From NCBI GenBank assembly GCA_017864995.1, contig GCA_017864995.1_4097.1: a stretch of 64,000 nucleotides of DNA; one strand, 5' to 3'. Each line of letters starts with the position of its first letter. Positions within the stretch are counted from its first letter, which is position 1. Below are positions 10,015-27,925 of the stretch, in pieces. The notes beneath the pieces were generated by a model. That model was not told where the DNA came from. It did not search any database and worked only from the letters and a program-made list of their open reading frames with translations. The translations under genes were made by a program, and so were the position numbers. Origin of the DNA: a phage.

Positions 10015-10141
<127 letters not shown>

Positions 10142-10148
10142 CCAAAAT

Positions 10149-10249
<101 letters not shown>

Positions 10250-10251
10250 CC

Positions 10252-10412
<161 letters not shown>

Positions 10413-10416
<4 letters not shown>

Positions 10417-10573
10417 CACATGAAGAATGGATGAATGACATTAATTTTAGATATTCGGGTATCGGTAAATGGCTAAAGTATCATTGGGAATTCATTTCAG
10501 AGCCACATCTGTATGATAAACTTATCAACGATCCAGCATATGAAATGTACTTAATTGAACTACTGGTACGAAC

Positions 10574-10577
<4 letters not shown>
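10413..10577 (+). CDS. hypothetical small protein, MTHEEW family (copy 2)
   Basis: 54 aa ORF; ATGA overlap with copy 1; tandem duplicate. Confidence 0.5.
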
Positions 10578-10745
<168 letters not shown>

Positions 10746-10746
10746 G

Positions 10747-11200
<454 letters not shown>

Positions 11201-11228
11201 GTATCTTAATAACAGAAGGTATATTGAA

Positions 11229-11468
11229 ATGAGTAAGTATTTTGTGAGTTATAGTTATAATGTATCACAAAAGGTTCCACGTGGTGATGGAATGGGCTGG
11301 TCATATGATACATATACTTTAAATGAGTCATGTATCATCGAATTGCAAGAAAAAGACCTTGACATTTTAAAAATCAAACAATATATTCTTGATGTTGAAT
11401 TGGCACATCGTACCGACAACTGTCCAGATGTAAACAACGTCAACATCTTAGTACTAACCAAAGTATAA
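11229..11468 (+). CDS. hypothetical protein
   Basis: Track ORF 11199 trimmed to ATG 11229 with GAAGG SD. Confidence 0.55.
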   Translation: MSKYFVSYSYNVSQKVPRGDGMGWSYDTYTLNESCIIELQEKDLDILKIKQYILDVELAHRTDNCPDVNNVNILVLTKV

Positions 11469-11474
11469 GATAAA

Positions 11475-11508
<34 letters not shown>

Positions 11509-11514
11509 GAATTC

Positions 11515-11860
11515 CACAATCAGACGTATATGGTGTAAGTTACGTCGATGTAATCCAGAACAAGATCTCTGGTACTCTAGGAAGTGGTGAATGTTAACCT
11601 AGACGGGTTTGATAATTGGACGATAGGCAATTATTACTTGACTAGCAGGTTTAAACTAGAGGTGACAGTCCTTTACCAAACTGGAAAACCGGATGGACTT
11701 TTATTTAAAAGGGTAAGGCGTGGAAATATGTTTACAGTAGTTGCTTTTAGTAGCCTGTACGCCCCACGTCAAGGTAGCCGAAAGGCAAGTTAAAACGGGT
11801 GGTTATAAAGCTGAATTAACAGCGGCGTTTAAAAGCGTCACCATCCATTTTTTTAATTAA
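11515..11860 (+). ncRNA. candidate structured non-coding RNA (function unknown)
   Basis: About 350 nt driven by promoter at 11480, visibly higher GC than flanks, no convincing ORF (only a GTG-start 69 aa ORF of odd composition), multiple stems; lies in the tRNA region. Confidence 0.3.
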
Positions 11861-11870
11861 AGTTGGTGAT

Positions 11871-12690
<820 letters not shown>

Positions 12691-12703
12691 ATAGGAAATT
12701 AAA

Positions 12704-12889
12704 GTGCAACTTTTAATTCTTTCAATATTGTATATTATTATAATGGTTCCGATATCAATACGTTTAATTACACTTGAACGATTTTTATCGAAACATGGAA
12801 ATAGATCTATGATCTTTGTACCAATCGGGTTGATATTGTTTGGTATATTTTCATTTATAATGGGAATTAACGCTACATTCATTTCATAG
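12704..12889 (+). CDS. small hydrophobic membrane protein
   Basis: 61 aa ORF with GTG start; two hydrophobic segments. Confidence 0.4.
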   Translation: MQLLILSILYIIIMVPISIRLITLERFLSKHGNRSMIFVPIGLILFGIFSFIMGINATFIS

Positions 12890-12898
12890 GAAACAAAT

Positions 12899-13566
<668 letters not shown>

Positions 13567-13585
13567 AGAGGTACTTCGAGTATGC

Positions 13586-13916
<331 letters not shown>

Positions 13917-13967
13917 GCCTCCCCTCAATGCGAAAGAGTATGGAGACTTGTTGGTTATCTTACTTCT

Positions 13968-14050
<83 letters not shown>

Positions 14051-14053
14051 TCA

Positions 14054-14126
<73 letters not shown>

Positions 14127-14143
14127 CAAAATAAAGGTACACT

Positions 14144-25065: not shown

Positions 25066-26031
25066 GTGAAAAAGCTTGATTTAAATGCAATTTCTGAAGA
25101 AGTACTGGATGAGTGTTTTGCTAGTGAAGAAGTCAACGTATTAGAGGCTCTTGATTCCGTCGAAGAAGAAGAACATGACGGTCACAAGTTTGAGAAACCA
25201 AAAACAGGTATCAGCTTAACTCGCCCTAAAGGGATAACGAATGAAATGCTCATCCAAGCAGTGCGTGATGGTATTGACGTTGAAAAGAACATTGACCTTT
25301 TGGTTCGCTACAACTATCCAATGGTAGTAAGTGTTGCACGTAAGTGTACATGTTTTATCCCATTTGAAGATAAGATTTCTTATGGTGTTGAAGGTTTAAT
25401 GCGAGCAATTCATACGTTCGACACTACCAAAAATGTTAAGTTCATTACATATGCAACAACAACTGTGTACATGACAATCTATAACGAAAGTGCAGATGCT
25501 AATTATCTAGTGCATTTCCCACGTTATATGAGTGTTAATAACATTTATGTGAAACGTTGTGTAGAAGAGTATCAAAGGAAACATGGTAAATACCCAACTC
25601 CTGAGATGGTGTCAAAAGAGACTGGTATTGAGATTCAACACGTTAAGAATTGTCTAACTTACAGTAACACTTATGTAGCATTGAATATGAAAATGAGTAA
25701 TGATTCAGAAAGTACATTATCTGACATTGTTACTTCAGTTGAACCTGATTACAACTTAGGCGTAGAAACTGTCAGTACCCCACTGGTACAAAGTATTGCA
25801 GAAATGATGAGTAACCTATCTGCCAAAGACCGTGAATTGATTGAACGTGTACATGGTATTGGTTCTTATTCTGAACCCGAAACGCTACGAGAAATCATTG
25901 AGAGTGGTTTTGAAGATGAGAAGGGTAAGGTCATGACTGCTCGTTCTTCATTGCACCGTAAGTACTCTGAAGCAATGGAACGACTGCGTAAGATGGTTAA
26001 GACAAAAGGTTATGAGTTCGAAGATTTTTAA
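25066..26031 (+). CDS. RNA polymerase sigma factor, sigma-70 family (phage-encoded)
   Basis: Region-2-like LVRYNYPMVVSVARKC...GVEGLMRAIHTFDTTKNVKFITYATTTV and region-4-like LIERVHGIGSYSEPETLREI; GTG start with GGAGAAG SD. Confidence 0.7.
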   Translation: MKKLDLNAISEEVLDECFASEEVNVLEALDSVEEEEHDGHKFEKPKTGISLTRPKGITNEMLIQAVRDGIDVEKNIDLLVRYNYPMVVSVARKCTCFIPFEDKISYGVEGLMRAIHTFDTTKNVKFITYATTTVYMTIYNESADANYLVHFPRYMSVNNIYVKRCVEEYQRKHGKYPTPEMVSKETGIEIQHVKNCLTYSNTYVALNMKMSNDSESTLSDIVTSVEPDYNLGVETVSTPLVQSIAEMMSNLSAKDRELIERVHGIGSYSEPETLREIIESGFEDEKGKVMTARSSLHRKYSEAMERLRKMVKTKGYEFEDF

Positions 26032-26038
26032 GATTAAA

Positions 26039-26065
26039 GGGTTGACTTCGGTCAACCCTTTTTTT
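26039..26065 (+). terminator. rho-independent terminator (PeSL-type hairpin without -10 box)
   Basis: gggttgac-TTCG-gtcaaccc followed by TTTTTTT; same hairpin as the terminator-promoter cassettes downstream. Confidence 0.7.
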
Positions 26066-26599
26066 ATGGGACAAATTTATTAATGGTGATACAATGATCT
26101 ATGTACAATCACAATGACAGTACTGGTACTGACAATCTTCCCCTACTTCACTTGAAAATGTAAAGGATAGATGAGCTTTTCATTGTAGCGAACAGCAAAA
26201 GAAACCCGTTAGATGTGGGCATAGTTTGAACCCCTCACGGCAATGCGGCTGTATAAAGAACCACGTTAGGATAGCTGGTGGTTCCTCGATAGACATATAA
26301 GGATAACACCTTACGAATTATCTAAGGGAGAGTTATCGAATTTTGTACAGGAAAGTTGCGTCCAAAATTTGAGTACTCACATTAAGTATTTGATTGCATA
26401 GATACTTAATGAAGATACACTATGTTTAAAAGTGTAGACCGTCATATGAAACTGAAGTAGAGAGAAACAGGATGACCCGCTTTCGCACTCGTTATGAGTA
26501 ATCTTCAATGCAATAGCTCTGATACCATCAGCGTCAAATTTCCCTCCGTGCGGGGGGAAGAAAAATCCCTTCCTCAAATCCCGTCAATATTAAAAGTCC
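26066..26599 (+). other. ORF-free island, candidate structured RNA
   Basis: About 530 bp with no plausible ORF on either strand in an otherwise gene-dense region; more GC-rich by eye, many local inverted repeats. Confidence 0.3.
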
Positions 26600-26628
26600 T
26601 TGACAGTTATGATTCATTCGCGTAGAAT
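26600..26628 (+). promoter_or_regulatory. sigma70-type promoter (TTGACA-17-TAGAAT)
   Basis: TTGACA at 26600 and TAGAAT at 26623. Confidence 0.5.
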
Positions 26629-26692
26629 ACGTAGTATTAGAAGCGAACAGACATCTCGAAGAGATGGATGATTAACCATCGAGGAATATCTA

Positions 26693-26902
26693 ATGAATTC
26701 AGTAATCTTTTTAATTATTGCTCTTTCACCACAATCTGGCGTACAAATCACCCCAATGAATTCAATGAATCAATGCATTGCAGTACGTGACAGTACGTAT
26801 GAACAAGTAAACAGCGTTTCACTTAGAACAGTTGGTGAAGAATTAATGTGGTGTTACAATAGTAATACTAAAGAAAAACTAATTGTTGGACAAACAGAAT
26901 GA
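26693..26902 (+). CDS. small secreted/membrane protein
   Basis: 69 aa ORF with N-terminal hydrophobic segment; SD GAGGAA upstream. Confidence 0.5.
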   Translation: MNSVIFLIIALSPQSGVQITPMNSMNQCIAVRDSTYEQVNSVSLRTVGEELMWCYNSNTKEKLIVGQTE

Positions 26903-27130: not shown

Positions 27131-27925
27131 ATGAGCACTATAGATGAATTGATTCGCCGGAATTCAAAATACTACGACCCATCAGAAATTGTCGGCAACA
27201 TTACTAAATCTGAGTTCGGCCCAAATACTCGAAAACTCATTCATGTAATGTCACGTGATGGCTTTAAATGTGATTGTTGTGGTGAATCCAATGTGGTATT
27301 CACTTTACATAAGCACAGTACTAAAGACCGTTATAAATTCAGACCTTATGTACTTAAAGGGAAACGCCTTGTACGCATGACGTTAGACCATAATGTACTG
27401 GACTGTCTTCAGGGCGGTAATGATAAAGAGAACATGACCGCATTGTGTGAGGATTGTAACGCATTACGCCAGCATAAGTTTGCTGAGTACAGTGAGTTTA
27501 AGCACTGGTATCATAACGCTGATCGTTCTATCGAGCCTGACGTTAACTACTGCTTCATTGAGTATATTAAGAATGCTAAAGATACGTACATTCTTAAATC
27601 AATGTCACCTATTACAGTGTTCCCTGAGAATCTATTCAGTACTATGCAGCGTGATTTTAAACGTGGTATCATTAATGCATTCAAACATTTAGACAAAGGT
27701 ATCAAGCACTTTGAGGTGCAATGCTTAAATGAAGGAATGAATCGTTTAGTACAAATTTACATGAAATCATTTATAGGTGTTGACACCGCACGTCTACCAG
27801 TATATAATTACTTTATTGAAAGCGAAGAAGGTGAATCACTTCGTGATTATGGTGAAAGATTTAATAATAAAGTTTTCACTGCAATCGCAAACGAGATTCA
27901 TTACTATAAACCATATGTAATTTAA
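27131..27925 (+). CDS. HNH endonuclease-like protein (possible homing endonuclease)
   Basis: CDCCGES ... LDHNVLDCLQGGNDKENMTALCEDCNALRQH fits the HNH beta-beta-alpha metal finger. Confidence 0.65.
   Translation: MSTIDELIRRNSKYYDPSEIVGNITKSEFGPNTRKLIHVMSRDGFKCDCCGESNVVFTLHKHSTKDRYKFRPYVLKGKRLVRMTLDHNVLDCLQGGNDKENMTALCEDCNALRQHKFAEYSEFKHWYHNADRSIEPDVNYCFIEYIKNAKDTYILKSMSPITVFPENLFSTMQRDFKRGIINAFKHLDKGIKHFEVQCLNEGMNRLVQIYMKSFIGVDTARLPVYNYFIESEEGESLRDYGERFNNKVFTAIANEIHYYKPYVI

Follow-up and report, generated by a model that had tools for sequence, protein, structure and literature searches.

A multicopy family of predicted large, structured non-coding RNAs in Rak2-like jumbo phages

Results

An ORF-free gap follows the sigma-factor gene

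We examined a 64,000-nucleotide stretch of phage DNA (contig GCA_017864995.1_4097.1 of assembly GCA_017864995.1; hereafter the window) that represents an Asteriusvirus-type jumbo coliphage and is 97-99.5% identical to phages WPEC5, WPEC3, fEgEco12 and EC.P1 of the 121Q/PBECO4 group. Downstream of a sigma-70-family gene (Pfam Sigma70_r2/r3), in a region where neighboring genes abut or overlap, lies a 661-bp gap that ends at a run of small abutting ORFs. The initial annotation had described an ORF-free, structure-rich and GC-rich island of about 530 bp at this site; the gap is real and slightly larger than that. Only 38-aa (-), 66-aa (-) and 43-aa (+) ORFs fall within it, and none is conserved. 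Over the stretch matching the 66-aa minus-strand ORF, 9 of 58 family members have a stop-free frame, lengths modulo 3 are spread evenly (22/16/20), and the longest stop-free stretches lie at different places in different copies. The GC content of the region is 39.3%, compared to a window mean of 34.8% (sd 2.8), which places it at the 93.5th percentile of equal-sized segments, with flanks of 36-37.5%; the excess is real but modest. The many short inverted repeats noted initially are not beyond chance when judged by single-sequence folding (z = -1.5 on the + strand and -2.4 on the - strand), whereas the comparative analysis described below shows that the helices are real.

The gap contains one transcription unit composed of a promoter, a core of ~435 nt and a 3' module of ~50 nt (Table 1). 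The initial suggestion that the upstream hairpin had lost its -10 box is misleading, as a promoter-like site with an extended -10 lies just beyond the hairpin, and all 67 copies of the element that were examined share TGRRAC-N13-TGnTATAAT at the same distance from the core. This motif is the "TGAAACG -35" promoter class reported as enriched upstream of DNA-synthesis genes in phage CBB (PMC5259590). The promoter noted in the initial annotation, at the far end of the island, was confirmed as a consensus match. We infer that host sigma-70 RNA polymerase starts near 26102 and that the RNA folds as it is made.

Table 1. Features of the RNA locus in window coordinates, with the evidence for each.
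Feature	Coordinates	Strand	Description	Evidence
Sigma-factor gene	25066-26031	+	Sigma-70 family	Pfam Sigma70_r2/r3
Gap	26032-26692		661 nt, no conserved ORF	ORF list and comparison of copies
Upstream hairpin	26036-26061	+	Intrinsic-terminator-like, 11-bp stem plus T-run, ending the sigma-factor gene; upstream boundary, not part of the RNA	Terminator scan; similar hairpins at seven other window sites
Promoter	26068-26095	+	-35-like GGGACA (26068-26073), 16-nt spacer, extended -10 TGATACAAT (26087-26095; TACAAT with upstream TG); start near 26102-26103 inferred	9 of 12 match with TG
RNA core	26103-26537 (approximate)	+	~435 nt, predicted start to heptamer 1	Profile match and predicted structure (see text)
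5' domain	26111-26186	+	Long-range helix P1 (ACAATGA 26111-17 with TCATTGT 26180-86) enclosing hairpins P2 (26118-26131) and P3 (26142-26170); conserved 9-nt P3 loop GAAAATGTA (26154-62)	P1: all 8 pairs with double changes (alignment misplaces the window's P1 by one column); P3 inner stem also in the curated structure
P4-P5 region	26192-26252	+	P4 (26192-96 with 26248-52) and P5 (26206-09 with 26237-40) flank conserved internal-loop strands AAAAGAAAC (26197-205) and CAATGCG; hairpin P5a (26215-34); near-invariant CACGGCAATGCGGC (26236-49)	Two helices of the curated structure; invariant columns
P6	26258-26284	+	Hairpin, GAACCA/TGGTTC stem, variable loop	All 6 pairs with double changes, up to 4 pair types, 97% paired
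P7 region	26288-26330	+	Invariant single-stranded GATAGACATATAAGG, hairpin P7 (26298-26313), invariant TAAGGGAG (26323-30)	Invariant columns; one helix of the curated structure
Pm	26338-26371	+	Module hairpin, stem AATTTTG/CAAAATT, conserved 16-nt loop (ACAGGAAAGTTGCGTC in the window)	In a different helix in other subfamilies (alignment columns 370-410 versus 545-580); at both sites in the E. coli island copy
P8 and PK1	26380-26411	+	Hairpin P8 (outer 26380-86 with 26405-11; inner 26388-92 with 26399-403); loop 26393-98 pairs with 26509-14 as pseudoknot PK1	Two helices of the curated structure; PK1: all 6 pairs with double changes, 98.9% paired
3' domain	26414-26514	+	Hairpin P9 (26414-37); pseudoknot PK2 (GTCAT 26441-45 with ATGAC 26472-76); three-way junction of P10 (26453-57 with 26503-07), P11 (26460-64 with 26480-84) and P12 (26487-99); PK1 3' strand (26509-14)	Four helices 99-100% paired, with 3, 4, 4 and 3 double-changed pairs
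Terminal hairpin and heptamer 1	26519-26537	+	CTGAT acc ATCAG (26519-31); heptamer 1 GCGTCAA (26531-37)	No T-run insert follows in the window copy
3' module	26542-26587	+	C/U-rich:G6 hairpin P13 (CCCTCC gtgc GGGGGG, 26542-57), conserved tail, heptamer 2 (CCGTCAA, 26581-87) repeating heptamer 1	P13: only G-C to G-U changes, so RNA-level pairing on the + strand
Downstream promoter-like site	26600-26628	+	TTGACA-17-TAGAAT, for the downstream small ORFs; downstream boundary, not part of the RNA	11 of 12 match
Downstream ORF	26693-26902	+	69 aa	ORF list

The element is conserved across genera and present in several copies per genome

The element is syntenic in all Asteriusvirus genomes, in whose records the gap is left unannotated or carries only spurious small "hypothetical proteins". 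Beyond the genus, about 450 nt of the gap (roughly 26141-26597) aligns at ~70% nucleotide identity with Pectobacterium CBB, Cronobacter GAP32, Serratia BF, Yersinia fHe-Yen9-04, Salmonella Munch/7t3, and Erwinia and Xanthomonas jumbo phages. In each of them it sits in an ORF-free gap of ~650 bp, co-oriented with the downstream genes in nearly all loci. Genes similar in size to the window's downstream ~265-aa "HNH" gene follow the RNA in other genera, but they are not homologous to the window's gene or to each other, so there is no conserved protein partner.

Two motif scans of IMG/VR, a family HMM and the locus coordinates revealed several full-length copies per genome, in general 4-5 diverged, co-oriented copies 52-112 kb apart. 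CBB, GAP32, Yen9-04 and two or three metagenomic genomes have five each, 121Q has four that are 95-100% conserved in all Asteriusvirus records, and Rak2 has at least two. The window holds exactly one, which is full-length against the family profile (nhmmer E 1e-102 over 26088-26596, HMM 2-522 of 522); only the terminator hairpin recurs within the window. A metagenome scan returned 53 loci, all of them true members, and about 100 loci were recovered in total. Paralogues within a genome are only 58-78% identical and fall into five orthologous groups that are shared between genera and keep the same order along the genome. All copies in a genome are on one strand. In five-copy genomes the gaps between copies are 44-86 kb, and the probability that five random points on a circle leave so large a minimum gap is 0.0004-0.02, although these genomes share synteny and this counts as essentially one observation. 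The spacing in Asteriusvirus genomes, with only four detected copies, is less even (55-112 kb, P=0.05).

Covariation supports a 13-helix structure with two pseudoknots

We aligned 36 distinct copies with MAFFT, and RNAalifold gave 48 pairs on this alignment. Covariation scans added hairpins and two pseudoknots, yielding a curated structure of 71 pairs in 13 helices. In this structure 97.1% of cells are paired, compared to 36-44% when the partners were slid by 1-3 columns; 54 of 71 pairs show changes on both sides, compared to 12-19; and the covariation score is 0.497, compared to 0.07-0.10. None of 500 shuffles reached the observed values. Several helices (P6, P10, P11, P12 and PK1) show 3-4 pair types with no breaks, and all helices form in the window sequence. 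G-U pairs, for example pair 431/438 in 29 of 29 sequences and U-G in P13, would be A-C mismatches on the other strand, so the RNA is on the + strand. Long unpaired stretches are invariant, namely GAAAAUGUA, AAAAGAAAC, CACGGCAAUGCGGC, GAUAGACAUAUAAGG, UAAGGGAG, GACCGU and ACCCGC.

In 36 of 58 other copies, a T-run, terminator-like insert follows the core. After that point every copy carries the 3' module, with an invariant G-run on the RNA-like strand and a conserved tail (CAACAAAUC-UCGUCAG). The module never occurs without the core (three extra hits were chance matches inside coding sequence), and it evolves in step with the core apart from one conversion event in 121Q. The heptamer that ends the core and the heptamer that ends the module change together within a locus: UCGUCAG with UCGUCAG, CGUCAA with CGUCAA (the window), UUGUCAG with UUGUCAG, GUGUCA with GUGUCA, and CUUCAAG with CUUCAAG. 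In the locus designated L066, both heptamers changed C to U since it split from its 96%-identical relative L053. No complementary partner for the heptamers was found inside the RNA by column scans, per-sequence searches or covariation. The module is inherited with the core, so the repeat is not a recent target-site duplication.

The element matches no RNA family searched

Searches with the 4227 models of Rfam 15 (including group I/II introns, RNase P, tmRNA, 6S, SRP, ROOL, GOLLD, HEARO, OLE and raiA) returned only 6 tRNAs for the whole window at gathering thresholds. At E-values up to 10, the only hits on 25900-26800 were to the terminator hairpin or were chance, and six divergent family members searched to E 5 showed nothing in the element. 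ARAGORN found 6 tRNAs at 10-14 kb and nothing at 26 kb, and no tRNA lies near 25 other copies. A self-splicing intron is not supported, as the element is intergenic, has its own conserved promoter, is bounded by an upstream terminator, and is flanked by complete genes that differ between loci. We found no description of the element in papers on jumbo phages, ornate RNAs, viral structured-RNA catalogues, or the CBB, fEgEco12 and PA5oct genomes, although an anonymous entry in a catalogue of 10,006 viral candidates (PMC10690425), which was not compared by sequence, cannot be excluded.

Complete cassettes occur in integrative elements of Enterobacteriaceae

A complete cassette (E 1.6e-121) lies in a ~10.7-kb island of E. 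coli LR-29-1, between ffs and ybaA. The island carries a tyrosine integrase cut by IS3, DuOB/DUF488/mSLOG conflict genes and a resolvase. Related elements occur in the Citrobacter amalonaticus chromosome, in an Enterobacteriaceae MAG and in two metagenome contigs, where the RNA sits between a large serine integrase and a CI/S24 repressor; one of these elements also carries a reverse transcriptase. These elements share the RNA, a 118-aa protein and the repressor. Their proteins have no match in 50,697 phage records, and no replication gene was recognized in them by Pfam or PHROGs.

Discussion

The comparative evidence supports, with high confidence in the absence of transcript data, the proposal in the initial annotation that the island encodes a larger non-coding RNA. 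It appears to be a stand-alone gene for an intricately folded RNA of about 435 nt to heptamer 1 and about 485 nt with its 3' module, and is the window's single copy of an undescribed family. Large, highly structured bacterial and phage RNAs are rare, and each one found so far has opened new biology (RNase P, group I/II introns, OLE, HEARO/omega-RNA, ROOL/GOLLD). The genomic behavior of this one, with five paralogues retained at regular intervals, a module behind a terminator, a heptamer repeat that changes together within each locus, and capture of the whole cassette by integrative elements, has no precedent among known ornate RNAs. It is experimentally tractable, as it occurs in cultivable coliphages (121Q, PBECO4, phAPEC6 and relatives) and in an E. 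coli chromosome.

The function of the RNA is unresolved and is only inferred here. We favor, at roughly even odds, action at or from its own locus, because of the even spacing of the copies, the invariant G6-hairpin/tail module that follows each copy, the locus-by-locus change of the two heptamers, and the capture of the cassette by small elements without recognizable replication genes. Within this reading, the single most likely mechanism, although doubtful in itself, is a structured pre-primer/R-loop RNA that marks multiple replication origins. The folded core would play the part of ColE1 RNA II, and the G-run/heptamer region would be where the RNA pairs with DNA, as at T4 ori(uvsY)/ori(34). 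T4 origins appear to be middle promoters whose transcript forms the primer R-loop, and ColE1 RNA II apparently needs its fold plus an rG-run/dC-run contact; the association of the promoter class with DNA-synthesis genes in CBB is in line with this view. In contrast, the terminator-like inserts would stop most transcripts before the proposed hybrid site, the RNA gene is more GC-rich than its surroundings and so shows no sign of a DNA-unwinding element, and GC skew stays positive on both sides of the window copy (22-31 kb) with no inflection, although phage skew is mostly set by transcription, so that this negative result carries little weight. In addition, so many invariant unpaired nucleotides, two pseudoknots and a movable tertiary module are typical of free ribozymes or RNP RNAs, not of known primer RNAs. 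A less likely version of locus-tied action is a leader RNA that modifies the polymerase making it (put/nut-like processive antitermination).

More speculatively, and likewise doubtful, the five evenly spaced, co-oriented cassettes of a ~350-kb phage genome could be a new kind of genome-organizing element. Each would make a ribozyme-sized folded RNA that stays functionally tied to its locus, as an RNA-primed origin or the head of a transcription domain, with locus specificity set by a heptamer repeated in the RNA's 3' end and in the DNA just downstream. The integrative elements of E. coli and Citrobacter would then have captured the cassette so that the jumbo phage's machinery replicates or expresses them, making them the first candidate satellites of jumbo phages. 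If the RNA does act at its own locus, it would show how a 350-kb phage genome organizes replication or transcription.

A free, trans-acting RNA, such as a ribozyme, the RNA subunit of an RNP, a sponge or mimic for a host factor, or a self-assembling RNA like ROOL/GOLLD, remains a possible but somewhat less favored alternative, in which several gene copies would provide dosage or diversified specificity and the even spacing would be incidental. It is consistent with the size of the RNA, its pseudoknots and long invariant unpaired stretches, the hairpin that moves between helices, and the provision of each copy with its own strong promoter and of most copies with a terminator directly after the core. 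Invariant nucleotides are shared between lytic jumbo phages of several genera and integrative elements with no shared proteins, which points to a host partner or to RNA-only chemistry, and in the temperate, Citrobacter-type element the RNA lies in the int-cI accessory region, a usual place for trans-acting lysogeny-expressed genes. Moreover, known bacterial or phage RNAs of this size and complexity essentially all appear to act in trans or to be self-splicing. This alternative does not explain the even, co-oriented spacing, the invariant module behind a terminator, or the joint change of the two heptamers given that no partner was found inside the RNA. No complementary target for the Pm loop occurs in the window. 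A phi29 pRNA-like hetero-oligomer of the five paralogues is not supported, as a scan between paralogues over 4-8 genomes, with low power, found only the intramolecular helices and low-complexity matches.

A cis-regulatory leader (giant riboswitch or attenuator) that controls only the genes immediately downstream is very unlikely. The order of promoter, structured RNA, terminator and genes is seen in 36 of 58 copies, the RNA is co-oriented with downstream genes in nearly all loci, and in some copies heptamer 1 forms the 5' half of the terminator stem (e.g., GUCAGA...UCUGAC-U8 in the copies designated L067 and L031). However, downstream genes differ between paralogous loci and are not homologous, a separate strong promoter lies between the RNA and the next gene, the window copy and groups A/B have no terminator, and in phage Munch the downstream genes are on the other strand. 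The second suggestion of the initial annotation, a remnant of a mobile insertion, is not supported, and a decayed remnant or a pseudogene is highly improbable: despite the lack of ORFs, the GC excess and the short direct repeats flanking the 3' module, the element is full-length, its substitutions preserve the structure across genera, its promoter and five orthologous groups are retained, and its module is inherited vertically with the core. Least likely is an unannotated protein-coding gene, because, although some records annotate small hypothetical ORFs inside the element (e.g., GAP32_503A and three minus-strand CDS in Kaldavass), no frame is conserved, indel lengths are not multiples of three, and an apparent AUG mini-ORF in the 3' module is read in different frames in different copies and is absent from the window.

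Comparison with known systems

The PA5oct ncRNA002 (451 nt, 1.2-5% of phage reads by RNA-seq; PMC7318152) is an ORF-free, highly transcribed region of ~450 nt in a jumbo phage distantly related to the Rak2-like group. It shows no detectable sequence homology to the element (nhmmer --max, E>1), is GC-rich, lies in the terminal repeat, and has no reported structure. Like the HK022 put RNA and the lambda nut and rrn boxB-boxA antitermination leaders, the element sits directly downstream of a strong promoter, is followed in most copies (although not in the window) by a terminator-like insert and then by a hairpin plus a conserved A/C-rich single-stranded tract (CAACAAAUC), and is co-oriented with long gene arrays. 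It is, however, about six times larger than put, its boxA resemblance is weak (GCCUCAACAAA against GCUCUUUAACAA), and downstream genes have their own promoters. With the ColE1 RNA II pre-primer and the T4 R-loop origins it would share a promoter-driven transcript of several hundred nt whose 3' region meets a G-run/C-run element; as regards T4, the elements are dispersed along a T4-related genome, and the cassette could perhaps make a small element replicate, as T4 origin plasmids do. Hybrid formation, RNase H processing and initiation have not been demonstrated for it, and its fold is much more elaborate and more conserved than that of RNA II.

ROOL and GOLLD, large ornate RNAs of unknown function that are often encoded by phages and prophages and were shown by cryo-EM to form RNA-only multimers (PMC12286853), are the same kind of object: phage-encoded non-coding RNAs of more than 400 nt with many covarying helices and pseudoknots that form independent transcription units. 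The element has no sequence or structure match to their covariance models, occurs in jumbo phages of Enterobacteriaceae rather than in Lactobacillales or rumen phages, and is not next to tRNA genes. It comes as 4-5 diverged, evenly spaced copies per genome and has a conserved 3' module with a repeated heptamer.

RNA cassettes in chromosomal and integrative elements

A complete copy of the RNA cassette lies in a ~10.7-kb chromosomal island of E. coli LR-29-1 (NZ_AP027515.1; also NZ_CM130020.1), between ffs and ybaA. The island carries a tyrosine integrase cut by IS3, DuOB/DUF488/mSLOG-DUF4326 conflict genes, and a resolvase, and it may be a satellite or a defence island linked to jumbo phages. 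Only 2 of 5426 complete E. coli genomes have it. A family of small integrative elements was also observed in Citrobacter, an Enterobacteriaceae MAG, and metagenomes (loci L085, L136, and L082), in which the order is large serine integrase, the RNA, a 165-aa gene, then a divergent CI(S24)/Cro pair and a conserved 118-aa gene. L136 additionally carries a reverse transcriptase (RVT_1) that is presumably a defence cargo.

Features of the window surrounding the RNA gene

A cluster of six tRNA genes (Ser-TGA, Ser-GCT, Met, Asn, and two Thr-TGT) is located 12 kb upstream of the RNA gene and is not adjacent to it. The terminator hairpin cassette that precedes the RNA promoter is present in seven further copies (87-96% identical over ~30 nt), all of which lie downstream of the RNA gene, whereas none was found upstream in the window. 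A 264-aa ORF that relatives annotate as an HNH endonuclease gave no Pfam hit at E<0.01, although a CxxC...DH...N...CxxC pattern is visible; this ORF is not homologous to the similar-sized genes that follow the RNA in CBB and other genera.

Coordinates of the RNA copies, associated elements, neighboring features, and the PA5oct ncRNA
Location	Feature
L081 6800-7432	RNA cassette, E. coli LR-29-1 island
L085 1845-6991; L136 135-7450; L082 6422-7830	Small integrative elements
L136 1343-2272	Reverse transcriptase (RVT_1)
Window 10055-14127	tRNA gene cluster
Window 27131-27925	264-aa ORF
Window 34514, 38102, 38889, 40466, 41150, 45774, 47842	Further copies of the terminator hairpin cassette
L072 and L020 (247.5 kb and 326.6 kb)	Phage 121Q copies
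Alignment A1 columns 27-60 (for example L023 8003-8050, and L015, L012, L019, L013)	5' hairpin with U6 run
Alignment A1 columns 370-410 versus 545-580; window 26338-26371	Hairpin module with conserved loop
L042 14452-14902	PA5oct ncRNA002

Variation among copies of the RNA

Two of the copies in phage 121Q (L072 and L020) possess 3' modules that are 93% identical while their cores are only 71% identical, indicating a gene-conversion event confined to the terminator and module region. In one orthologous group of the alignment of distinct copies (A1), a stable hairpin followed by a U6 run sits directly after the -10 box, at the very 5' end of the RNA, and looks like a terminator at about +30. A hairpin module with a conserved 16-nt loop (ACAAUAUAGAUCCGUC) is inserted in the central region in most subfamilies, but in the P12 arm in others, and the E. 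coli island copy has it at both sites; it behaves like a transposable tertiary-contact module. When compared with the abundant 451-nt ncRNA of the related jumbo phage PA5oct (ncRNA002), which was defined by RNA-seq, this family shows no sequence similarity.
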